24,000 nt of DNA from Pelosinus sp. sgz500959 (GTDB lineage Bacteria > Bacillota > Negativicutes > DSM-13327): contig NZ_JBGJZL010000005.1 in NCBI RefSeq assembly GCF_042610375.1, positions 76,727-100,726 on the forward strand. The letters are read 5' to 3'. Shown in pieces: positions 3,673 through 24,000 of the stretch. A program made the position numbers and the translations under genes. A model generated the notes under the pieces. That model was given only the letters and a program-made list of their open reading frames with translations. It was not told the origin of the DNA and made no database searches. Each line of letters starts with the position of its first letter. Position 1 is the stretch's first letter.

Positions 3673-5031
3673 TTAGAATTTATAAATAAACTGCAGTTTC
3701 CAAAAATCATAGTCGTTGGTAGAAGCTGTTTTATCTTTTATAGTGGCATATTGAAGTTTTCCTGTCATATTTTTACTAAAGGCATAACGGTAGGCAAAAT
3801 CAAGGGTTTTATTGGCATTGCTATTTCCTTCATCGACAGTATCAATTGCGGTATATGCTGTGTAGATACTGTTTTTCTGAAGAACGAAATACTGAGTAGT
3901 AAAGTTTTGGTCACCTTTATCTTTTAGAGATTGGGCACCATAGACAACTTTCGCCATGCCAAATGCACCATCTGAAGTCGCCTCATTGTTTTTACCATAT
4001 TCACCGCTAATTGAGAGCTTATTGTTGAATTTCCAGCCTAAATTACCATATGTATAATTTAATAGTTTTTTATCATTTTTCCAATTTCTAAAGGTGGCAG
4101 CACCGACGGCCCAGTTCAGTTTACCGCTTTTAGCAGAAGCTGAAATGGCTTGAACATCAACGTTAGAAAAATCTGCAGCATAAGTTCCAGCAGCACCGCC
4201 TGCTTTATTATCAAAAGCATATCCGCGTACGCCACGTGCAAAGCGGCCGTGCTTGACATCAAAATTCACACCATTTGATTCCCAGGCAAGTTTTGCACCA
4301 TCAAAACTAAAGAATGCACTATCAACAATCATATCCTCGTTATCAAGGTCGAGTGCTTGACGTCCTAGCGTTGCTTTTACTGCACCGATCTTGGTGGTAG
4401 CGAAGAAACGATCAATTTGTGCACCATAGGTATTACTAGATGAGTTGCCTTGCGTACCACCAAGTATAGAATTTGCCGCTCTAAAGTTATCTTGGGTAGG
4501 GGCAACATTGACTATACGCATTCCAATGGTTGTATTATCATCAACTTTGGCAGTTCCATTCATTCTAAACCAAGAAGATTCTGTATGGGAGCCTATTGAT
4601 GTTGGAGCATTTTTCATGCCTTTTATCTTTTCTTGTACCAATAAGGCTCCAGAAAATTTAATTGTAGACTGATTTTTCTCCACTTTAGTTAGGCGAGTAT
4701 CTAGGTTTTCAATTTTATTCATTTCTAGAGCATATTCGTTAGCTAATTTGTCGATGAGGGCTTTTTGTGCGATATTGGCTTTGTTTTCATTAATCATCGC
4801 CTTGTAAACGATCTGTGCCATTTCACCGCGACTCATGGTTTTGTCAGTGACAAATTTACCGTCTTCGTAACCATCAATAATGCCAGCCTTCGCAAGATAA
4901 GTCAATGCCTCATAAGACCAGTGATTAGTAGGAACATCTGTAAATATTGGGGTGGACGTCGCGGCCCATACTGGACTTGCGATATTCAGGGTGAGTGCCA
5001 AAGCGGAACCCACAATTAAATTTTTTTTCAT
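3673..5031 (-). CDS. SLH-domain outer-membrane porin (OmpM/Mep45-type) with signal peptide
   Basis: I prefer the internal ATG at 5031, which has SD AGGGGG 8-9 nt upstream, over the ORF-track start at 5124. The product starts MKKNLIVGSALALTLNIASPVWA|ATS (signal peptide). An SLH motif follows (TDVPTNHWSYEALTYLAKAGIIDGYEDGKF), then a coiled-coil linker. The rest is Gly/Asn/aromatic-rich with alternating beta-strand character and ends ...LQFIYKF (C-terminal Phe OMP signature). Confidence 0.85.
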   Translation of the reverse strand: MKKNLIVGSALALTLNIASPVWAATSTPIFTDVPTNHWSYEALTYLAKAGIIDGYEDGKFVTDKTMSRGEMAQIVYKAMINENKANIAQKALIDKLANEYALEMNKIENLDTRLTKVEKNQSTIKFSGALLVQEKIKGMKNAPTSIGSHTESSWFRMNGTAKVDDNTTIGMRIVNVAPTQDNFRAANSILGGTQGNSSSNTYGAQIDRFFATTKIGAVKATLGRQALDLDNEDMIVDSAFFSFDGAKLAWESNGVNFDVKHGRFARGVRGYAFDNKAGGAAGTYAADFSNVDVQAISASAKSGKLNWAVGAATFRNWKNDKKLLNYTYGNLGWKFNNKLSISGEYGKNNEATSDGAFGMAKVVYGAQSLKDKGDQNFTTQYFVLQKNSIYTAYTAIDTVDEGNSNANKTLDFAYRYAFSKNMTGKLQYATIKDKTASTNDYDFWKLQFIYKF

Positions 5032-6510: not shown

Positions 6511-6623
6511 TAGAAATATGTAAATAAAGTTTTGGGAAAATGTACAAATTTTTCAGAAAATGGTAAAATATTTTTCAAAGCTATAAAAATTGCATAAAAA
6601 TGGAAATGTAAAATTTGTTTTTT
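6511..6623 (+). promoter_or_regulatory. Candidate upstream activating / intrinsically bent region: reiterated GAAAATG..AAA..TTTT units
   Basis: Similar units occur at ~6513 (GAAATATGTAAATAAAGTTTT), 6536 (GAAAATGTACAAATTTTT), 6556 (GAAAATGGTAAAATATTTTT) and 6597-6602 (AAAAATGGAAATGTAAAATTTGTTTTT). They lie directly upstream of the -24/-12 promoter. The function is inferred only. Confidence 0.3.
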
Positions 6624-6626
6624 GTA

Positions 6627-6643
6627 TGGCATAACACTTGCAT
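6627..6643 (+). promoter_or_regulatory. Sigma-54 (-24/-12) promoter
   Basis: TGGCAT-AACAC-TTGCAT matches the consensus TGGCAC-N5-TTGCW with correct GG/GC spacing. It lies ~30 nt upstream of the ATG at 6672 of a sigma-54-dependent activator/PTS operon. Confidence 0.8.
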
Positions 6644-6671
6644 AGTATATAAGCAGAAGAGGGGTTTGGTA

Positions 6672-9554
6672 ATGGATTTAAAAGAAAAAATGTTAGGTAT
6701 TATAAGAACTGAAAACATAAAAGATCCTTTTACAGATGCAAGACTAGCAAAAATGTTATCAATCACAAGAGAAAATATTACTGTTTTGCGTAAGGAATTA
6801 AATGTTGGCAATTCCAGAGAGCGCCGCAAACCTCACTTAAAAAAGGCTATTGAAAATATCGTAAAACAGAATAGTAAGCTCAATATTACGGAGATCACTA
6901 AAAAATTAATGGAATCAGGGTTTGATGTATCACGGCATGTAGTCGAAGAATTCTTTAATGATGTTGACATGGAGAGTCCACAAAAGGAAGAAAAAGTTTC
7001 AGTGTTACAAGATCCTTTTTCAACGTTAGTGGGATATAGCGGTAGTCTAGAAAAAAGTGTTATACAATCCAAATCTGCAATTTTATATCCACCATTTGGT
7101 TTATCGACGTTGATTATTGGGGAAAGTGGTGTTGGAAAAACACAATTTGCTGAATGTATGTATAATTTTGCAAAACAGAAACAAATTATCGCAGACCATG
7201 TGCCGTTTATCGTTTTTAACTGTGCTGATTATAGCGATAATCCACAACTGCTATTATCACTGTTATATGGTTATAAAAAAGGTGCTTTTACTGGCGCTGA
7301 CAGTGATACAGAAGGACTCGTTGAACATGCCAATCATGGGATTCTCTTTTTAGATGAAATTCATCGGTTACCACCTAAGGGGCAAGAAATTCTGTTTTCA
7401 ATATTAGATCGGGGGCAGTTTCGTCGATTAGGTGAAACAAAAGATGAACGCAAAGTAAAAATTATGTTTATCGGTGCTACGACCGAAAATATTGAATCTA
7501 GTTTGTTGCTCAGTTTTAGAAGACGTATACCCATGATTATTTCGATTCCATCCTTACATGAAAGAGCTTTTGTTGAAAAAGTTGAAATCATTTATGACTT
7601 TTTTCAACAAGAGTGTAATCGAATTAATGTGAAAATTTTTGTAGAGTCGAAGGTCATTGAAATTTTGACACTGAAACGATTTAACGGTAATATCGGTCAA
7701 TTAAAAAGTACAATACAAGTTGTTTGTGCGCGGGCATTTATGAAGAATATTGGTAAGGATCATGAAATGATCAGTATAGGGTATGAGGATATATTAGAAA
7801 CAAATAGTATCCAACATGATTTTATTTTGGAAGATGTTAATATCGTCGAAGTTAGAAACTACATACAAGATATGTTATTTATACCCTTTGTTAACAATAA
7901 TACTCACGTTGCTAAGAAAAACCAAGATATGGAGTGTTATTTACCAGAGGATTTTTATCGGCAGATTGAAAAAAAGTATCATGAATTAACTAAATTACAT
8001 ATTGATTTTTCTGAAGTCAAAGAAATATTATGGACGTTTATTATGAACGAATTTAGTAATCTTGAAGCCGGTCTGAATGGCAAATACAAATATTTTTCCT
8101 TAACTGAATTAGTTAATATCGTAGATAAAGAAATTATTAATTTAGTGAAAAAAGTAAGAATGCTATTAGTTACGGAGCATATGTACAACGATATTAATGA
8201 AAAAATTTTTATTTATTTGGCCATTCATTTAAATGAAACGATTAAAAGAATACGCTTAAAACAACAAATTATTAATATCAATTTATCAAAAATAAAAAAG
8301 GATTTTACGAAAGAATATCACTTAGCCAGTCAAGTTGGTACTTGGCTACAGGAAATAAAAAATGTAGAAATACCTGATGATGAAATTGGCTTTATTGCTA
8401 TGTATATTAAGGCAGCGATCCAAAATAAATTACCGAAAAATCGGGTCGGTGTGATTGTTGTATCTCATGGGCGAATTGCTACAGAAATTATCAACGTGGT
8501 GAGAGCTTTACTCAATGTAAATTTTCCTATTGCTATTGATATGCCTTTGGATGAAAGTCCATCTATTATCTATGAAAAAATTATTGGGATTTCTAAAATG
8601 ATAGATGAAGGTAGGGGCATCTTATTTTTAGTTGATATGGGTTCTTTGATTAATGCTGGTAAAATTGTGACGGACAAATTAGGCATACCAACTCAAACTC
8701 TTGATCGAGTAGATTTGTTGACCGTAATTGAAGCCGTACGTAAAGCATCGATTCCTGAGAATAGTTTAAGTGAAATATATTCTAGTTTAGTAAAAACTCG
8801 TTATAACTATCCTTTGTTGAGCATTGAAGAAACGAGTAAACCCATCGCAATTGTTGCATTATGTTTGACTGGTGAGGGAACGGCTTATCATATTCGTCAA
8901 ACGATTGAACGAAAGTATGCAAATGTAACCGTTTTCCAAGTCGGTATCATGGACGAACAATTACGAAATAAAATTAAAGAAATCCAAGAAAAATTTAAAA
9001 TCTTGGCGATCATCGGTACCATTAACCCAGAAATTGAAGGCATTAATTTTGTTGTCTATGAGCCTTATTTACTTGAAAGTGGTATTAGAGAGTTTGATGC
9101 AATTTTAAATATTGAAAAAGGTAAAGACTTGGCAGATTTTTCAGAAGACGATTTATTGGTTTTTGAATCAGAGATTCGTTCACAAAAAGAATTAATTGAA
9201 GTGATGTGTTTACTACTCATTAATAAAGGTTATGTGAAAAAAGAGTTTTTACAATCAGTTTTACATCGTGAAGAGATGGCACCGACTTTCTTAAAAGGAG
9301 AAATTGCCATTCCTCATGGGGACTCTCACATTGTTAATAAATCAGGGATTGTAGTTGCTAAATTAAAATCTCCCATCCCTTGGGGAAGTGGTCATGTAAA
9401 TGTTGTATGTTTACCAGCATTTAAAATTAATGACAAAAATGTTGTTAAGCGTCTTTTAAAGCCTTTCTTACATCTAGAGTTCATTGAAAAGTGGCGCACG
9501 ATAACCGATATGAACACTTTTAAAGAAATGCTATATGAGAAGATGAAAGAGTAA
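6672..9554 (+). CDS. Sigma-54-dependent, PTS-controlled transcriptional activator (LevR family) with C-terminal EIIA(Mtl/Fru)-type domain
   Basis: I prefer the start at 6672 (SD GAGGGG upstream), because the ORF-track start at 6615 would lie upstream of and span the -24/-12 element. Domains by motif: N-terminal HTH regions; an AAA+ domain with Walker A GESGVGKT, GAFTGA loop (7281-7298) and Walker B LFLDEIH; one PRD; an EIIA-Man-like segment (RVGVIVVSHGRIA); an EIIB-Gat-like segment (IAIVALCLTGEGTA); and an EIIA-2-like C-terminus (GEIAIPHGDSH). Confidence 0.85.
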   Translation: MDLKEKMLGIIRTENIKDPFTDARLAKMLSITRENITVLRKELNVGNSRERRKPHLKKAIENIVKQNSKLNITEITKKLMESGFDVSRHVVEEFFNDVDMESPQKEEKVSVLQDPFSTLVGYSGSLEKSVIQSKSAILYPPFGLSTLIIGESGVGKTQFAECMYNFAKQKQIIADHVPFIVFNCADYSDNPQLLLSLLYGYKKGAFTGADSDTEGLVEHANHGILFLDEIHRLPPKGQEILFSILDRGQFRRLGETKDERKVKIMFIGATTENIESSLLLSFRRRIPMIISIPSLHERAFVEKVEIIYDFFQQECNRINVKIFVESKVIEILTLKRFNGNIGQLKSTIQVVCARAFMKNIGKDHEMISIGYEDILETNSIQHDFILEDVNIVEVRNYIQDMLFIPFVNNNTHVAKKNQDMECYLPEDFYRQIEKKYHELTKLHIDFSEVKEILWTFIMNEFSNLEAGLNGKYKYFSLTELVNIVDKEIINLVKKVRMLLVTEHMYNDINEKIFIYLAIHLNETIKRIRLKQQIININLSKIKKDFTKEYHLASQVGTWLQEIKNVEIPDDEIGFIAMYIKAAIQNKLPKNRVGVIVVSHGRIATEIINVVRALLNVNFPIAIDMPLDESPSIIYEKIIGISKMIDEGRGILFLVDMGSLINAGKIVTDKLGIPTQTLDRVDLLTVIEAVRKASIPENSLSEIYSSLVKTRYNYPLLSIEETSKPIAIVALCLTGEGTAYHIRQTIERKYANVTVFQVGIMDEQLRNKIKEIQEKFKILAIIGTINPEIEGINFVVYEPYLLESGIREFDAILNIEKGKDLADFSEDDLLVFESEIRSQKELIEVMCLLLINKGYVKKEFLQSVLHREEMAPTFLKGEIAIPHGDSHIVNKSGIVVAKLKSPIPWGSGHVNVVCLPAFKINDKNVVKRLLKPFLHLEFIEKWRTITDMNTFKEMLYEKMKE

Positions 9555-9583: not shown

Positions 9584-10030
9584 ATGTTGGATTTGGATTT
9601 AGTTGTATTAAAAATGAAAGCAGAAACTTCAAGTGAAATTATTCGAAATCTAGGTGGATTGATGTTGTCGAAAGGCTATGTAAAGGATAGTTACATTGAA
9701 GCGGTGTTAGAAAGAGAAAAAAATCTTCCAACAGGACTCCCCATTGATGATTTTTGTGTCGCTATTCCTCACACTGATTCAGAGCATGTGAATCAATCAA
9801 ATATCGGGATTGCAACCTTAGAGAAGCCAGCCATATTTCACTCCATGGTTAGTCCAGAAGAAATATTATATGTAGAATTAGTTTTTTTATTAGCAGTGAA
9901 AGATCCTATCTTGCAGCTTGAATTATTAAAGAATCTCATGTCAGTTTTTCAAAATAAGGAATTATTGATCGCATTGAGGAATGCCACTTCCAAAGAGGAG
10001 GTTAGGGAGTTATTAAGTTGTCTTGGCTAA
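9584..10030 (+). CDS. PTS EIIA component, fructose/mannitol/galactitol (PTS_EIIA_2) type
   Basis: The 148-aa product has the phosphorylatable His context FCVAIPHTDSEHV. It is paralogous to the regulator's C-terminal domain. SD GAAGGAG lies upstream. Confidence 0.8.
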   Translation: MLDLDLVVLKMKAETSSEIIRNLGGLMLSKGYVKDSYIEAVLEREKNLPTGLPIDDFCVAIPHTDSEHVNQSNIGIATLEKPAIFHSMVSPEEILYVELVFLLAVKDPILQLELLKNLMSVFQNKELLIALRNATSKEEVRELLSCLG

Positions 10031-16519: not shown

Positions 16520-16663
16520 ATGAAGTGGGTAGATTTGGTGCTGGATCATTCTACCATCACAATTATTTGTTTAGTATTATGTTTACTGTTTCTCAATTTT
16601 GGCACCATAGTATGGGTGGTGATCATGGGGATTCTACTCTTTGCTTTATCAAAAATGATATGA
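16520..16663 (+). CDS. Hypothetical 47-aa two-helix membrane peptide (not in supplied ORF track)
   Basis: The ATG at 16520 is preceded by GGGAGG with ~7-nt spacing. The product is MKWVDLVLDHSTITIICLVLCLLFLNFGTIVWVVIMGILLFALSKMI, with the stop at 16661-16663. It lies between tkt and the strong hairpin at 16684-16719. There is no homology evidence. Confidence 0.4.
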   Translation: MKWVDLVLDHSTITIICLVLCLLFLNFGTIVWVVIMGILLFALSKMI

Positions 16664-16683: not shown

Positions 16684-16719
16684 ATAAAGAAGACTTAGCG
16701 TGAGCTAAGTCTTCTTTAT
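16684..16719 (+). terminator. Terminator hairpin downstream of tkt / small ORF
   Basis: A perfect 16-bp stem (ATAAAGAAGACTTAGC / GCTAAGTCTTCTTTAT) closes on a GTGA loop. The T-run is partly inside the 3' arm, and no long U-tract follows. Confidence 0.6.
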
Positions 16720-16969: not shown

Positions 16970-18685
16970 ATGAAATTTTTTGATGATCTGAAAGTAAGCC
17001 TTAAAATTGGTGTATTGATCATGGTTGCATTACTAGCGATTGGCGTTATTGGTTACACGGGACGTTATTACCTAGAAATTTCTGAAAAAGATATGGATGT
17101 AATGTATGAAGAGCAGTTGATCCCAATTAAACTTTTAAATGAATGCAGCACACTTGTAGCCAAGGGGAATGCATTCACCTTGGCACTGATGCTCACTGAG
17201 GATGATAGACAAAATGACCAATTGAAAAAAAATATTGAAGATGGATCTAAGCAAATCACTGCTTCTTATAAAGAAATTGAAAGAATTAATTTTGACAATA
17301 AAGGAAAAGAACTGCTGGCTAAAATACAGATATCTAGAGAAAAATATCGAGTCGTGAGAAATCAAGTCGTTGAGTTGGCATTACAAAATAAAAACTCTGA
17401 AGCTTATGCTATATACATAACGCAGGTCGATCCTCTTGCTTTGCAATATATGAAAGAGTTACGAGAACTGAGTGATTACTATTCTGAACTGTCAAAAAAA
17501 ATTGATATTGCTAACCATGAAGCATCAGAAAAAGTCATGCAACTGATGACAACGATATTGACAGTTTCTTTTATCATATTGATCATCATTGGGTGGTATA
17601 TAGCTAGGAACATTACCAAACCACTAAATATCATGGTAGAAATTTGTGGAGAATTTGCAGCGGGAGATTTTCGCGACCGACCACGCCAGGTCATTCGGAA
17701 AGATGAAATTGGTCAATTAGCTGATACCTTAGCATCTACACGCACCAGTCTTCGTGCATTGATGAAGCAAGTCAATCAGTCTTCTGAACGATTGCTTGCC
17801 TCTTCAGAGGAGTTGACTGCTAGCGCTGGTCAGTCTGCTGAAGCTGCCGACCAAGTGGCCCAATCCATTGTTGATGTAGCAAATGCAGCAGATGAAGAAT
17901 TAAGAATCGCTACTCATACATCGGCGATTGTACAAGGAATAGCTACAGGTATCAAACGGGTTGCAACGAATGCCAATGAAGTGGCTGATCAATCCATGCA
18001 GGCTGCTAATAAGGCTGAGCAAGGTAATCAATCTGTAGATAAAGCCATCACTCAGATGAGTAAAATTGAACAGACGGTGAGTACTTCAGCTCAAGTTGTT
18101 GTCAAATTGGGAGAACGTTCGAAAGAAATTGGCCAAATTATCGATACCATCTCGGGAATTGCTGGGCAGACCAATTTATTGGCTTTAAATGCTGCGATTG
18201 AAGCGGCTCGTGCAGGAGAGCAAGGTCGGGGGTTTGCCGTAGTCGCAGAAGAAGTCCGTAAACTTGCAGAACAATCTCAAGCTGCAGCCAAGCAAATTGC
18301 CACGCTCATTGGTGAGATTCAAGATGATACAGGCAAAGCCGTAGTTGCGATGAGTAATGGTACGCGAGAAGTCAAGACCGGAGCAGAAGTTGTTAATGCT
18401 TCTGGTCTTGTATTCCAGGAAATTGTCGTCATGGTAACTCAAGTATCCGTTCGAACCCAAGAAATCTCTGAAGCCATAAAAGAAATGGCTAGTAATAGTC
18501 AGCAAATTGTCGGATCTGTGCAACAAATCGATGAACTTAGCAAAAAAACGTCAGCAGAGACTCAGATCGTTTCTGCTGCCACACAAGAACAATTGGCATC
18601 CATGGAAGAGGTCGCTTCATCCAGCCAAGAGTTATCTAATTTAGCAATGGAACTGCGCGAAGCTGTCGCCAAGTTTGAACTTTAG
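16970..18685 (+). CDS. Transmembrane methyl-accepting chemotaxis protein (4HB sensor, HAMP, MA domain)
   Basis: I prefer the ATG at 16970 (SD AAAGGAG 8 nt upstream) over the GTG at 16961. TM1 is [18 protein letters not shown] helical ~160-aa periplasmic region follows, then TM2 [18 protein letters not shown] and a HAMP domain. The canonical tip is [36 protein letters not shown]. Confidence 0.9.
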
Positions 18686-18951
18686 TCTCAAAGATTAAAA
18701 TGTATACCTGACAAGAAGTCTTATCAGGGATGATGAGCCTTCTTTTATAGAAGATATTTTATTGATAAAAGTCAACGTAACTGAGAGCGTAGATTGAAAA
18801 ATTAACCAAATATTAATGTATAAATAATAGCTAAGCTTATTTTTTATGTTATTGTAGAATAACAGATATCAATCATTTATCCTAATTGGCAAATAAAAAA
18901 TACTGTCAATTATCCACATAAGGGACGTTTTTTTAGAAAGGGGAGGATGTT

Positions 18952-19326
18952 TTGTATAAGTCACTGAAGATTTTGATTAGCGATGATTCCTTATTACTGC
19001 GAAAAAAATTAAGAGAAGAGCTGGAAAAACTAGGTTGCCAAGTGTTTGAGGCTAAAGATGGAGAAGAAGTGGTTGAAGCCTATTGTCAATGTCGCCCAGA
19101 TGGAGTCTTTATGGATATTGTTATGCCCAAGGTGGGCGGTCTAGAGGCTTTAAAAGAAATTAAAGAAATCGATGATAAGGCAAAGGTCGTTATGCTTTCT
19201 TCTCTGGGAACAGCTGCTGCCTTGTTAAAAGCGCTCAAATTGGGTGCAATTGACTTTATTCAAAAACCATATAATAGCAGTCAAATAGAGAATGCTGTCA
19301 ATAATATCAGTCGGAAGGAGAATTAA
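18952..19326 (+). CDS. cheY: CheY-like single-domain response regulator
   Basis: TTG start with SD AGGGGAGG 5 nt upstream; the nearby ATG at 18947 is out of frame and stops after 6 codons. The 124-aa product has acidic pocket ILISDDS, phospho-acceptor context GVFMDIVMP, and MLSS and QKPY (conserved Ser/Thr and Lys). Confidence 0.85.
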   Translation: MYKSLKILISDDSLLLRKKLREELEKLGCQVFEAKDGEEVVEAYCQCRPDGVFMDIVMPKVGGLEALKEIKEIDDKAKVVMLSSLGTAAALLKALKLGAIDFIQKPYNSSQIENAVNNISRKEN

Positions 19327-20193
19327 ATGTCAAGTCGATTTTTTGCCCAATATATACTAAATCAAGGGGTGCTGACTCCAGAACAAGTACAGGAAGCTCT
19401 TGAAGATGGACGCTCAGTTCAAGTGAAATTAGGAGTACTCGCTATTAATGAGAAGTTTTTGACTGCTGTACAAGTTGAAGAAATTCACAGATTACAACAT
19501 ATGGTTGACAAACGATTTGGTGAGATCGCCATCGATGAAGGCTATTTGTCAGAAGAGCAATTGATGATTCTCTTAGCTGCACAAAAAAATAGCCATCTTA
19601 ATTTTGGACAAACATTAGTTGATAAAGGATTCATGAATTTAGAACAATTAGAACGTGTTTTGGATGAGTATAAAAGAGAAAGTAATTTAGATCAAGAGTC
19701 GGATTTAGCTATCCTTAAAGAAGGTATTCGTACCCAATTAAATCTTTCACAAGAAGATGAAGAGGTAGAATTATATTATGATTATATATTACTTTTTCTT
19801 AGAGCAATCGTTCGTTTCTTGGATGCCAGTCCTTTAGTCATTCCAACTGTCCATGAGCAGAAACAGGATCAGTGGTCTGCTTTGCAAAGTATGACTGGAG
19901 ATGTCACTCTGCAGAGCAGTTTTACTGCTGATGATAAAGTTTTGCTAGAATTGGCACGTCGTTATAGTGGTGAAGAGATTCATGAAATAGATGAACTTGC
20001 CCTTGATAGCATAGGAGAGTTTTTAAATGTTACGAATGGACTTTTTTGCATTAATCTTTCGAATGCGGGGTTAGAACTTGATTTACATCCGCAAAGCGTT
20101 ACAAAAAATGCGGATTTTTTAATGAAAAAGAACCATACAGTAACGATCGATACTGGTTTTGGTAGAATCAATTTAGTAATGGCTAGGATGTAA
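19327..20193 (+). CDS. CheX-type CheY-P phosphatase domain fused to four N-terminal MshEN-like (T2SSE_N-type) motifs
   Basis: The ATG directly abuts the cheY stop, and SD GGAAGGAG lies inside cheY. The C-terminal IDELALDSIGEFLNVTNG..(x)..HP fits the CheC/CheX/FliY signature D/S-x3-E-x2-N-x~22-P. The N-terminal 115 aa form four 24-residue units separated by 5-residue spacers. Confidence 0.7.
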   Translation: MSSRFFAQYILNQGVLTPEQVQEALEDGRSVQVKLGVLAINEKFLTAVQVEEIHRLQHMVDKRFGEIAIDEGYLSEEQLMILLAAQKNSHLNFGQTLVDKGFMNLEQLERVLDEYKRESNLDQESDLAILKEGIRTQLNLSQEDEEVELYYDYILLFLRAIVRFLDASPLVIPTVHEQKQDQWSALQSMTGDVTLQSSFTADDKVLLELARRYSGEEIHEIDELALDSIGEFLNVTNGLFCINLSNAGLELDLHPQSVTKNADFLMKKNHTVTIDTGFGRINLVMARM

Positions 20194-20237
20194 ATAAGAA
20201 TATTGTAGGAGATTTTTCATGGTTTATTTATAGTGAG

Positions 20238-20268
20238 AAAAGCAGGCGGATCGCCTGCTTTTTATTTT
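20238..20268 (+). terminator. Rho-independent terminator of the cheY-cheX-like operon
   Basis: An 11-bp GC-rich stem (AAAAGCAGGCG / CGCCTGCTTTT) closes on a 3-nt loop. It is followed by TTTTTATTTT. Confidence 0.85.
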
Positions 20269-20639
20269 AGTGTGGCAGTTATTAAAAGCCCTTACATACA
20301 TTTTTTGTTACTATTCAGGAATTCGATAAGTTTAATCTATAAACAATATTCGTTCCTTTTTTGAAGGAAATGCCAATAATTTGTCGAAGTTTTAGTTATT
20401 GTACAATTTATAAAAAAATCGTAATTTGCACATTGTACGAGAATGAAAATTAGGGAAAAGATGACGGAAAAGCAAGACAAGAGTAGTGGGTAAAAATACA
20501 GAAAAATCTGAAATTTTAACAATAATATGTGAAGTTTATTAAAATGCCGTTGGAGGAAACAAAGGATTTTGGGATATAATCCAGCAGGTAGCTACTACGA
20601 GTGAGGAACAAGCCACTGGTAGGTAGGAGGCATAGGGGC

Positions 20640-22349
20640 GTGAGATATGGATTTCCCATACAAGAACTAGGGAAAATTAAAATATTTTCAGTAGAAGCAA
20701 TAGACTCTTTAGCAAAAATAGCAGGCGAGATATTGGAGTTGAGAATAACTCTTACTATTGCCCAGTCTCGGTTAATCATTGACGGCATCATGAACCAGTT
20801 ACATATTCTCAAGAAACAAGCTGCATTTTTTGGCTTAATGGAAATGTTGATGTTAATTCGCCAAACCCAGTATATGCTAGAGGCTATGCGCTCTGGAAAT
20901 TTGCAAGGGGACCCTGGGGCAGTGGAGATATTGCTAGATGCCAAAAATGTATTAGAAGAAATGATACGTGAATTTGGCGAGGCAAGTATAAAGCACCAGG
21001 GAGCTAAAGGCTTAGAGATCGAACTAGCTTGCGCCCAGGATACAGAATGGCTTATCACTTTCATTGAGCAACTATTATTGAAGAAAAATAATGCTGCTCT
21101 TATTCTAGTTCCTCAAGCATTAGTGAGCAAATTACCTGCGATTATTTATACCCCATTGATAAAACTAGAGATTCTTGAAAATAGTACAGAAAACCATCAA
21201 GAGGATAAGGAAACAGAATCTCTAAGTATAGTCAATGATGATTCAATAGAAATATTCAATAGCAAATCGACTACGGTAAGTGATGAAAAAATAGAAAAAC
21301 TACTCACGATCATTAGAGAATTAGGAAATAAAGATCATGCTTTTCATCAGATGTCTCGCAAACTGACAATAGAATATAATTTGCCTAATTTATCCCGCGA
21401 AACGAAGGCTATAGGACAATTTATCAATCGCATTGCAGCTGAGTTAGAAGAGGCGGTCATGTCCATGCGCAGGGTTGAATTAGGACTGATTTTTCTACAA
21501 TTCCCTCAGATGATTCGTGATATTGAATTGCAGACCGGAAAGAATATTGGTTTGACCATGGAGGGCGAACATGTCACAGTGGATAAAACCATTGTCAAAG
21601 AGTTATATAATCTGCTACTCAAGATCATATGCAACATGGCTAACTTTAACATTGAGGTTCCAGCAGAGCGAAAGGCAGCGGGTAAGGAAATTCAGGGACA
21701 TATCTGCCTTACGGCCTATTCTTCAGGTAACCGAATTGTAATTGAGGTTGAAAATGATGGTCGCAGTATGAGAGGAGGTGAGGCAGACGCTGAAGTGCTA
21801 GAAATTTCTGATTTAATGCTTAGTATAAATGAAGTGTATTACCAAATGGATGCTTTGCCGGCTAATCTAGAAATGATCAACCTGCCAGATAAAGGTAGTA
21901 AAATAAGGATTACTTTACCACCTTTCAGCATGAGATGTAATGGGTTATTAGTAGAAACATCTGGTGAATTATTGGCTGTGCCTTTAGATAATGTGGTTGA
22001 GATTATAAGAGTGACTTGTAAGCAATTGATAACTAGACGTGGGCGTCAGCTCCTATATCACCGGGGTGAAGTGCTCGGGATCATATCTCTGGCTACGATC
22101 TTAGGGAAGATTGAACAGCAAGATAATGGAAGTGTGACAGTATTGATCGTCGCAAATGGACAGAATAAAATTGGTCTCATCGTCCATAAACTGCACAATG
22201 AACAAGAGATTGTGTGTAAATCCTTACCAGACTACTTGAATCATAGTGAGTACATAGGAGGCGCTGCTGTAACTTGCGATGGTAAGGTAGCGCTATTGCT
22301 TAATATTTCGGCAATGATCAAAAAAATGAATTCTCAATTGTTATCATAA
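20640..22349 (+). CDS. CheA-like protein: HPt (P1) - linker - dimerisation (P3) - degenerate/truncated HATPase (P4) - CheW-like (P5)
   Basis: I favour the GTG at 20640 (SD GGTAGGAGG 9 nt upstream) over the ORF-track GTG at 20601, which has no SD. HPt is ..IMNQLHILKKQAAFFGL..MLEAMRSGNL. P3-P4 aligns with the CheA landmarks MSMRRVELGLIFLQFPQMIRDI..GKNIGLTMEGEHVTVDKTIVKEL. The N-box region is KIICNMANFNIE, G1 reads NDGRS, and no G2/lid is present. P5 is LLVETSGELLAVPLDNVVEI...IGGAAVTCDGKVALLLNI. Confidence 0.75.
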   Translation: MRYGFPIQELGKIKIFSVEAIDSLAKIAGEILELRITLTIAQSRLIIDGIMNQLHILKKQAAFFGLMEMLMLIRQTQYMLEAMRSGNLQGDPGAVEILLDAKNVLEEMIREFGEASIKHQGAKGLEIELACAQDTEWLITFIEQLLLKKNNAALILVPQALVSKLPAIIYTPLIKLEILENSTENHQEDKETESLSIVNDDSIEIFNSKSTTVSDEKIEKLLTIIRELGNKDHAFHQMSRKLTIEYNLPNLSRETKAIGQFINRIAAELEEAVMSMRRVELGLIFLQFPQMIRDIELQTGKNIGLTMEGEHVTVDKTIVKELYNLLLKIICNMANFNIEVPAERKAAGKEIQGHICLTAYSSGNRIVIEVENDGRSMRGGEADAEVLEISDLMLSINEVYYQMDALPANLEMINLPDKGSKIRITLPPFSMRCNGLLVETSGELLAVPLDNVVEIIRVTCKQLITRRGRQLLYHRGEVLGIISLATILGKIEQQDNGSVTVLIVANGQNKIGLIVHKLHNEQEIVCKSLPDYLNHSEYIGGAAVTCDGKVALLLNISAMIKKMNSQLLS

Positions 22350-22377
22350 AATAAGAAATTAAAGGGGATTTTTATTT

Positions 22378-24000
22378 ATGGAAAAAAAATTAGCAAAGCC
22401 CAATACAGCTGCAGGTCATTCAATCACTAGTAAAACTGGTGCAAATATTGATTCTGCTGAACAAATGAGTCTTAAACGGGACTTGGCGAAACGTAGAGCC
22501 ATGGATAAAGTGCGGTCAAGAACGGTAGCAAAGCAACAACAGTTGGCTGAGCGTATTGCGACTGCTACAGAACAAATGGCAGCGGGCATTGAGCAATCCA
22601 GCAACGCTGCTGCAGAACTAGCTGGTACTATGACTCAGATTGCGACTGGTGCGGAAGAAGCGTCATCAGCTGCTGAAGAATGTCGAGCAGCCGTCAATCA
22701 GATCGAAAAAGCAGCGATTGCGGCTGATGAACTTGTTAGAATTTCCTTGGAGAAGGTTAATGTAGCTCAGACGTTGGTGAAAACAACAAGTACTGATGTA
22801 GAGCAATTGATTAATGGTGTCAAAAATGCTGCTGATACCAACATGCAGTCTGGTCGATTGGTAGCCCAGCTTGAAAACCAATCCGTAGAAGTAGGCAACA
22901 TTGTGGAAGCAGTGGTGCGCATTGCTGATCAAACTAATCTACTGGCTCTAAATGCGGCGATTGAAGCAGCGAGAGCTGGTGAACATGGTCGTGGTTTTGC
23001 CGTCGTTGCTGATGAAGTGCGCAATCTAGCGGAAATTTCCGAGAAATCGGCTCGTGATATTCGTGCGCTGGTCGGCGAGATTCAAGATAATGTGAAGGTC
23101 GTTGTAAAAGATGTAGAAGATGCTGGTAATGCGGCCAATGAGGAAGTGGAAAAAGCTAAAAAGATCACTTCAGATCTTGCTAAAATTGAAAAAGATATGA
23201 ATGGTGTGCAAAAAGGTGTTACTGAGGTTGCACAAAATTCTAGAATCGTTACTGAGGGCACTAAGGAGTTTTTGGCAATTACCCAGCAAGTGGCTGCTGC
23301 CAGTGAAGAGCAGGGTGCCGCGACAGAAGAAATTAGTTCGACAATTAATGAACAGAATAAAGCCTTTAATGAAATGAGTACTGCTGCTAACGAATTATCT
23401 GAACTAGCAGAACAACTCAAAATATCCACTGATGCTCAAAAATCCTCGGAAGAATTGGCATCAGCTTCTGAACAATTGTCAGCCAATGTAGAAGAAGCAA
23501 GTACGGCTGCTGGGCAAATCATGAAGACGATGGAACAGTTAGGCGAAGGGGCTAAGATGCAAGCTGAGCTGACAACAAAAGGAGCTACTATCTCTGAGCG
23601 CCTAGCGTCTGCTGCTACACAAATGAAAGTTCGCGCGCAAGAGTCAGAAGGGAAAGTCAATGAACTACAGTCCATCTTAGTGATTAATAAAGAGGAAGTC
23701 GATAATATTATTAGTGGTGTTTCTGGTGCTGCTGAGGCTAGCTTTAAATCAGCGCAAAATATTAAACGACTAGAAGATACCACAAGACGCATTGATAAAA
23801 TTGTGGATGCGATTGTCAATGTGACCATTCAAACCAATATGCTCGCTGTTAATGGCTCGATTGAAGCGGCGCGGGCTGGTGAATATGGACGTGGATTTTC
23901 AGTTGTCGCTGGTGATATTCGTACTTTGGCTAACGAATCAGCCGATAATGCAGATAAAATCAAGGATCTAGTGCGCAATATTCAAAATCAAATTCAACAG
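22378..24000 (+). CDS. Soluble methyl-accepting chemotaxis protein with two tandem signalling (MA) hairpin domains, 3' end outside window (DosM-like)
   Basis: The ATG at 22378 (SD AAAGGGGA upstream) opens 541 codons that run to the window end. This ORF is absent from the ORF track because no stop is reached. There is no hydrophobic segment. Tip 1 is [38 protein letters not shown] (22921-23037). Tip 2 is [39 protein letters not shown] (23824-23940). Confidence 0.85.

Follow-up and report, generated by a model that had tools for sequence, protein, structure and literature searches.

Do three chemosensory transcription units that follow one another at the 3' end of a 24,000-nucleotide (nt) stretch of the Pelosinus sp. 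sgz500959 genome (the window, to which all coordinates given without a contig refer) encode one specialised signalling pathway, as an earlier note on this DNA had proposed, or are they modules of different descent that lie side by side? Unit 1 is a gene for a transmembrane methyl-accepting chemotaxis protein (MCP), unit 2 pairs cheY with a gene in which MshEN-type repeats are fused to the phosphatase CheX (mshEN-cheX), and unit 3 begins with a cheA-like gene, below called pseudo-cheA, followed by the gene for a soluble, DosM-type MCP (Table 1). Our answer, to which we assign a probability of about 0.7, is that this 7-kb region combines, as a mosaic, three modules that arose separately in evolution and does not form one dedicated operon set, with unit 3 being the start of an F9-class cluster that carries a pseudo-CheA. 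The layout described in the earlier note, with its gene positions, three units, strong terminator, gap of ~370 nt and spacing of 28 nt, was recovered in full, the only weak point being the boundary between units 1 and 2, where we found a 266-nt gap and a weak hairpin only (z-score -1.5).

The evidence that carries this answer is comparative. A genome scan for MshEN-CheX proteins (using a 5-sequence alignment, since the 42- and 9-sequence alignments were too diverse) yielded 127 relatives, and 80 loci in other genomes, drawn from Pelosinus, Sporomusa, Clostridium, Paenibacillus, Neobacillus and others, were examined. A cheY gene lay directly upstream of mshEN-cheX in 78/80 of these loci, DosM, CheW3 or any other F9 gene occurred within 10 kb in none (0/80), and an MCP gene was directly upstream in only about five. 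The same holds close to home: in P. baikalensis, P. propionicus and P. fermentans, whose CheX and CheY are 71-73% and 76-81% identical to those of the window, the pair sits in a different neighbourhood. The cheY-mshEN-cheX pair is a module of two genes that stands on its own and occurs widely in Firmicutes.

The converse comparison gave the same picture, as MCP, CheY and CheX genes were absent upstream of pseudo-cheA in all five other contexts (L001, L003, L006, L091 and L092). In L001, a metagenomic contig, a transketolase gene (product 88% identical) lies ~5 kb upstream of pseudo-cheA, as it does in the window, and the genes between the two encode MarR, DUF6198 and GAF-sigma-54 activator proteins. 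Unit 1 encodes an ordinary transmembrane receptor of about 44 heptads (hairpin tip at residue 417; C-terminal arm of 154 residues, or 22 heptads), and its neighbourhood is not conserved among relatives; it would represent a module of separate evolutionary origin. The independence of unit 2 (78/80 with cheY, 0/80 with F9 genes), together with the 0/5 converse, therefore leaves the reading of the region as one pathway unsupported, and the juxtaposition of the units in Pelosinus sp. sgz500959 appears, from these gene orders, to be a local rearrangement and not a conserved linkage. A functional link between units 2 and 3 is possible, their adjacency being the only evidence for it here.

The class of unit 3 can be read from its receptor and from the genes that follow it in relatives. 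The F9 class is characterized by DosM, a receptor with a double signalling domain, and CheW3, a triple-CheW protein, in the consensus order [DosM W3 B. R Y A], with a DosM that lacks a sensor domain in 98% of cases (PMC9321776, PMC7534058). The window receptor has two hairpin tips, at residues 202 and 502 and thus 300 residues apart, and two MCPsignal stretches without a sensor domain (Pfam); across all of its 541 visible residues it shares 88% identity with a protein of L001 that has 650 amino acids (aa), the length of the DosM orthologues. The order in L001 is pseudo-cheA, dosM, a 489-aa triple-CheW gene, cheB, a HisKA-HATPase kinase, an Hpt+P2 protein, a single-domain response regulator, cheR and a complete cheA. 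Five contigs representing three pseudo-CheA lineages (L001; L003-L005; L006) have CheW3 and cheB after pseudo-cheA and dosM; L001 and L006 continue with cheR and a complete cheA, while L003-L005 end before that point. The core order recurs without a cheA-like gene in L008 and in L009/L010, and the CheW3 gene adjoins dosM in L001, L003-L006, L008 and L009.

By these signatures, unit 3 is predicted to be the 5' end of an F9-class cluster of the V. cholerae cluster I type, a specialised, non-housekeeping system. The earlier note had called the locus a non-canonical module; for unit 3 the specialised, non-housekeeping character stands, and the idea of an unclassified oddity falls, since DosM with CheW3 is the published F9 signature. 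It had further suggested that the genes for coupling and adaptation might be located downstream or be borrowed from another locus. The annotation of Pelosinus sp. sgz500959 includes a 489-aa CheW3 orthologue (P0250, 87% identical to CheW3 of L001) on a contig of 377,011 bp, and pseudo-CheA (P0001) is likewise assigned to a contig of that length; therefore, and by synteny in relatives, CheW3, CheB, CheR and a complete CheA very probably lie downstream of the window dosM. In V. cholerae, DosM and CheW3 proteins form double-layer cytoplasmic arrays spanned by DosM (PMC7534058, PMC9321776). By analogy, the DosM rod, having a kinase-binding tip at each end, would bridge the two baseplates of such an array, which DosM rods would build together with CheW3 and the true CheA.

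Clusters of this subclade carry additional signalling genes between cheB and cheR, and differ in this from published F9 clusters. In L001 (16384-19056), and also in L006 and L009, they code for a HisKA-HATPase kinase that is soluble, an Hpt+P2 protein of 460-472 aa that has no kinase domains, and a response regulator made up of a single domain; together these constitute an additional phosphorelay, which published F9 gene orders do not list explicitly. L003 (16331-18900), like L004 and L005, has a partner-switching cassette in the space between cheB and the HisKA kinase; it consists of two STAS proteins, an RsbW/T-like HATPase_c_2 kinase and an HATPase_c_2 protein with a weak match to the SpoIIE phosphatase. 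A cassette of this kind may point to an output through a sigma factor or a stress response, not to control of flagella.

The relatives also differ from the window in how the cluster appears to be transcribed. A sigma-54 promoter following the pattern TGGCAT-N5-[TG]TGCA lies ahead of the cluster in L001 (TGGCATACTTTGTGCA, 9908-9923), L006 (TGGCATACTTTTTGCA, 323-338) and L008 (TGGCATGATTTTTGCA, 4394-4409), and sigma-54 activator genes are found directly upstream of it in L001, L008 and L092. The window has neither, with no match to a sigma-54 promoter at 20194-20640 and no activator gene at the cluster, and such a promoter for unit 3 was rejected. A sequence aligned with the L001 promoter may be its eroded remnant, an assignment of low confidence. 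A sigma-70-type promoter can be proposed closer to the gene, in a region where sigma-70-like sites are no commoner than in shuffled sequence (Table 1).

The best-surviving alternative takes the three units as one pathway, in which the membrane MCP would provide the input, the F9 array with its pseudokinase would process it, and CheY with a CheX gated by cyclic di-GMP (c-di-GMP) would serve as dedicated output and reset. The units are indeed adjacent and on the same strand, and published F9 clusters of other taxa frequently carry CheY with CheX or CheC, and MCP genes, as in [YC DosM W3 B. R Y A] of Azospirillum, [DosM W3 B. R Y A Y X X] of Clostridium saccharobutylicum and [M M Y. R DosM W3 B Y A] of Carboxydothermus (PMC9321776). 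Among Firmicutes, CheY-CheX-CheX genes occur next to DosM/CheW3 in C. saccharobutylicum, in Caldicellulosiruptor spp. and in L008, where Y-X-X follows the F9 CheA, much as CheY and CheX neighbour DosM in the window; these CheX proteins, however, are 150-161 aa long, lack MshEN and are encoded inside the cluster after cheA, whereas the window pair is an MshEN-CheX module located upstream of the F9 cluster and beyond a terminator. As far as its sequence is available, the subclade nearest to the window (L009) lacks a CheX, a gap that the neighbouring CheX could fill, yet cheY-mshEN-cheX lies apart from F9 genes in 80/80 other genomes, and in other Pelosinus species it lies elsewhere. In addition, unit 2 ends in a strong terminator and unit 3 starts only after a further 371 nt, and a membrane receptor cannot readily join a sandwich-type cytoplasmic array, a doubt that has also been raised for V. 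cholerae VC1394 (PMC7534058). We consider a single pathway unlikely. The three unusual parts singled out in the earlier note were each borne out, namely a phosphatase with a candidate nucleotide-binding module (NF053729 73.9 bits; 11/11 motif matches in two repeats), a degenerate kinase and a double-tip soluble receptor, while the step from these parts to one pathway fails the comparative test (0/80 for F9 genes near mshEN-cheX; 0/5 for MCP, CheY or CheX upstream of pseudo-cheA; the terminator between units 2 and 3).

What distinguishes the mosaic's third module is the gene directly upstream of dosM. Its product is identical to the NCBI protein P0001 (569 aa, 100% identity, same start), which is annotated there as "CheW". 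The only Pfam domain above its cutoff was the CheW-like one (72.9 bits); H-kinase_dim scored 21.9 bits, below its cutoff of 23, and neither HATPase_c nor Hpt matched the window protein. Alignment with true CheAs revealed a deletion of ~34 residues that removes the F box, the ATP lid and the start of the G2 box; the N-box histidine is replaced and the N-box asparagine is kept in only 2/10 family members, with part of the G1 box (DDG or NDG) retained. An AlphaFold2 model (mean predicted local distance difference test score 70) matches P3-P4-P5 of Thermotoga maritima CheA (1b3q, E 3e-28), its confidence being low exactly at the site of the deletion. The P1-like domain is 33% identical to P1 of an F9 CheA and, in the window member, has the histidine at residue 42 when counted from the GTG at 20640 (LHILKK). 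Because the closest complete relatives, at about 40% identity, are CheAs of F9 clusters (P0012 of the L008 cluster, [DosM W3 B R A Y X X], and the CheA of L009), pseudo-CheA is best viewed as a degenerate duplicate of an F9 cheA, and it is predicted to be unable to bind ATP and to be catalytically dead. It would dimerise through P3 and dock via P5 to receptor or CheW, filling CheA positions in the baseplate, most likely as a non-catalytic scaffold or gain-setting subunit. Members that bear the histidine, including that of the window, may in addition take phosphoryl groups in trans from the true CheA, as Rhodobacter sphaeroides CheA3 does from CheA4.

Pseudo-CheA appears to be a conserved but rare CheA paralogue. 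A pattern-based scan with the family alignment found no relatives in 185,579 species genomes, and yet 10 sequence clusters that have diverged to 45-62% identity all retain the full-length open reading frame (ORF), and each locus for which downstream sequence exists has it immediately before dosM (L091 is compatible but cut, and L092 ends at the gene). The sister loci L009/L010 have no separate pseudo-cheA, and L008 also lacks one. Instead, L009 (7355-9967) and L010 (4309-6921), and also proteins P0121-P0123, have an 870-aa DosM variant that is a normal DosM from residue 219 onwards and whose N-terminal part, fused in frame, matches the P1-like domain of pseudo-CheA with 43% identity over 162 residues. 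This fusion was seen in three independent protein clusters, and in the L009/L010 lineage P3-P5 seem to have been deleted while the P1-like domain was kept, fused to DosM. The variant surfaced through a concatenated query of DosM, CheW3 and Hpt (1501 residues) that returned only proteins of at least 827 aa. The same query returned P0124 (1268 aa), in which two MCPsignal stretches are followed by three CheW domains, a DosM-CheW3 fusion.

A bolder version of events can be built on these fusions. Because the sister lineage keeps only the P1-like domain, fused to DosM, this domain would have acquired a new function that is tied to DosM and independent of the histidine; the F9 array of a small Sporomusaceae-related lineage would have recruited the dead CheA as a dedicated subunit, and in the window the sigma-54 region would have been replaced by an MCP and a c-di-GMP-gated CheY/CheX, wiring the F9 output to c-di-GMP. 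We regard this combined scenario as quite unlikely and offer it as speculation.

Could the cheA-like gene instead be what is left of a cheA duplicate in decay, serving no function? Its catalytic motifs are gone, its P1 histidine varies, it is missing from L009/L010 and L008, and, with 62% identity between window and L001 as compared with 88% for DosM and transketolase and 87% for CheW3, it appears to evolve several times faster than its neighbours. A gene in decay would, however, hardly be expected as an intact ORF in 10 diverged clusters, next to dosM wherever downstream sequence exists, nor with a good ribosome-binding site, with the P4-like and P5 domains as its best-conserved parts, ahead of the linker (mean pairwise identity 0.62, 0.64 and 0.42, respectively), a modelled fold that keeps the P3-P4-P5 architecture, and a P1-like domain retained as an in-frame DosM fusion, so that we judge decay highly improbable. 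That the protein is an active kinase with an atypical, lid-less ATP site is scarcely credible, since the partial G1 box, the P4 core fold and the P1 histidine of the window member are set against the loss of the N-box histidine and asparagine, the G2 box and the entire lid, the lack of any HATPase_c match, and the failure of the similarly degenerate R. sphaeroides CheA3 to autophosphorylate (PMC10782961).

Several observations weigh against a mosaic whose third module is an F9 cluster with a dedicated pseudo-CheA. Published F9 clusters, as noted, often include Y, X or C, and M genes (PMC9321776 S6 table). The F9 assignment is based on signature architectures and not on CheA phylogeny or class-specific hidden Markov models, and the contiguity of CheW3, CheB, CheR and CheA with the window locus, very probable as it is, is derived from synteny in relatives and from the 377,011-bp contigs given for both proteins. 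The P1 histidine column reads H/Q/Y = 6/3/1 in the 10 family members; the histidine is thus not conserved, and therefore trans-phosphorylation or phospho-acceptance cannot be the general role of the family. The tips of DosM are near-identical with and without pseudo-CheA (at most one conservative Y/F change in tip 2, unrelated to its presence), and an altered tip or dedicated baseplate surface for pseudo-CheA was rejected for lack of evidence. In unit 2, the first two MshEN repeats of the window protein are degenerate, and c-di-GMP binding is predicted from sequence.

In the second module, the CheX fusion carries the MshEN-type repeats. The MshEN motif consists of two tandem 24-residue units, [RKPN]hGxxhhxx[GAS]hhxxxxhxxxhxx[QNKRYWST], with 5 residues between them (PMC5013675), and measured against the published relaxed motif the four repeats of the window protein score 8, 9, 11 and 11 of 11 constrained positions, the two perfect ones (residues 63-86 and 92-115) being separated by the spacer KNSHL. 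Both domain assignments clear their cut-offs, which are 38 bits for NF053729 ("c-di-GMP motif, MshE-related") and 27 bits for Pfam CheX. In an alignment of 42 family members, conservation is highest in the repeats at 34 and 63, the perfect ones of the window protein being those at 63 and 92, and E231 and N234 are near-invariant, these being the residues of ExxN, the catalytic motif of CheC and CheX (PMC12799141). At E<=1e-30 the family has 163 representatives, of which almost all are some 290 aa long and align over nearly their whole length, and its architecture is already among the MshEN fusions listed by Wang et al. 2016 (PMC5013675). CheX would remove phosphate from phosphorylated CheY (CheY-P) through its intact ExxN site, and the repeats most likely bind c-di-GMP and thereby gate CheX activity. 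Such gating would couple the level of the second messenger to the lifetime of CheY-P, making the pair a c-di-GMP-responsive CheY-P sink.

The remaining genes of the window lie upstream and encode tetratricopeptide repeat (TPR) proteins, an SLH protein, a LevR-type regulator with phosphotransferase system (PTS) genes, a HAD hydrolase, an Fe-type alcohol dehydrogenase (Fe-ADH) and the transketolase, none of them a che gene. In agreement with the earlier note, no stand-alone CheW, CheR, CheB or CheD was found anywhere in the 24,000 nt. A terminator that closes the transketolase and small-ORF unit sets the 5' limit of unit 1. That small ORF encodes a hydrophobic 47-aa peptide directly 3' of the transketolase gene (16520-16663; ribosome-binding site GGGAGG) and is conserved at the corresponding place in L001 (5356-5499). 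At 6627-6642 a sequence close to a perfect sigma-54 promoter, TGGCATAACACTTGCA, is found within the called start of the LevR-type regulator ORF (6615-9554); the true start of this gene is probably the ATG at 6671, after GAGGGG, and the regulator gene would therefore own a sigma-54 promoter. A riboswitch or other structured RNA in the intergenic gaps was rejected, as no Rfam family scored above threshold there and the single weak match overlaps a terminator.

Table 1. Features of the chemosensory region, with window coordinates unless residues are stated.
Feature	Position	Strand	Description
Upstream terminator	16684-16719	+	16-bp perfect stem; free energy (dG) -26.2 kcal/mol; z-score -6.5; 0/200 shuffles as stable
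Transmembrane MCP, unit 1	16970-18685	+	Pfam 4HB_MCP_1 + HAMP + MCPsignal; ATG start; ribosome-binding site AAAGGAG
cheY, unit 2 gene 1	18952-19326	+	Single-domain CheY-type response regulator; Response_reg 93.8 bits; TTG start after GGGGAGG; best NCBIfam match CheY
mshEN-cheX, unit 2 gene 2	19327-20193	+	ATG abuts cheY stop; NF053729 73.9 bits; Pfam CheX (PF13690) 35.6 bits
MshEN-type region	19339-19671	+	Four repeats with a 29-residue period (24-residue motif + 5-residue spacer), at residues 5, 34, 63, 92
CheX catalytic motif, D-x3-E-x2-N	20005-20028 (residues 227-234)	+	DSIGEFLN; motif intact
Terminator of unit 2	20237-20263, T-run to 20268	+	12-bp stem; dG -20.1 kcal/mol; z-score -5.2; 0/200 shuffles as stable
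Gap between units 2 and 3	20269-20639		371 nt, from terminator end at 20268 to GTG at 20640
Candidate eroded sigma-54 promoter	20426-20441	+	TTGCACATTGTACGAG, aligned (MAFFT) with TGGCATACTTTGTGCA of L001; low confidence
Candidate sigma-70-type promoter of unit 3	20516-20545	+	TTAACA-18-TAAAAT; 10/12 consensus match
cheA-like gene (pseudo-cheA), unit 3 gene 1	20640-22349	+	Predicted CheA-derived pseudokinase; GTG start after GGAGG
Pseudo-CheA domains	Residues 1-569		P1-like 1-148; linker 149-212; P3 213-280; P4-like shell without ATP lid 281-430; P5/CheW-like 431-569
Spacer	22350-22377		28 nt between cheA-like stop and next ATG at 22378
DosM-type soluble MCP, unit 3 gene 2	22378 to beyond 24000	+	Two MCPsignal stretches; cut by window end

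The F9 class and the MshEN-CheX architecture were already known, and what is new here is the presence, in a cluster of the F9 class, of a further CheA paralogue that is predicted to be kinase-dead. For F9 systems, whose cellular role awaits discovery even in V. cholerae, variants that add or lose parts help to tell which components the system can do without and which of them work together. A kinase-dead CheA beside dosM, together with the P1-DosM fusion of the sister lineage, offers a testable handle on baseplate composition and on the roles of CheA domains that do not depend on catalysis. The c-di-GMP-type CheX module, once the one-pathway inference is corrected, emerges as a separate and widespread Firmicutes unit, worth studying for itself as one that may tie CheY-P turnover directly to c-di-GMP.

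Compared with V. cholerae cluster I (DosM VC1403, CheW3 VC1402, CheA VC1397), unit 3 shares the soluble receptor with tandem signalling domains and no sensor domain, and the CheW3, CheB, CheR and CheA genes that follow dosM in relatives match the class consensus. It differs in having an extra CheA paralogue, predicted to be catalytically dead, directly upstream of dosM, a position in which none of the 72 published F9 gene orders has a second or degenerate A (PMC9321776 S6 table). The closest analogue of this paralogue is found in the CheA3/CheA4 system of R. sphaeroides, where CheA3 likewise combines P1 and P5 with a non-functional kinase domain and works beside a competent CheA in a cytoplasmic cluster, just as a complete CheA shares the cluster with pseudo-CheA in L001 and L006; the degenerate P4 of CheA3 lacks one helix and parts of two neighbouring ones, and its Mg2+/ATP-binding residues are incomplete (PMC10782961). 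Pseudo-CheA appears to be of independent origin, its closest kin being Firmicutes F9 CheAs, and unlike in the CheA3 system the partner CheA of its clusters has a P1 domain of its own and the P1 histidine varies across the family; any phosphatase or phosphotransfer role would be assigned here by analogy.

The MshEN-CheX protein, in turn, resembles the MshEN receptor domain of V. cholerae MshE in its tandem 24-residue motifs and 5-residue spacers and in passing the NCBIfam model, and departs from it in having four repeats with a 29-residue period instead of one pair, the first two being degenerate. A functional parallel is found in the PlzC-CheX pair of V. cholerae, in which a module of the c-di-GMP-receptor type also controls a CheX-type CheY-P phosphatase; there the PilZ protein PlzC inhibits CheX in trans (PMC12799141), whereas in the window a predicted MshEN-type module is fused to CheX in cis.

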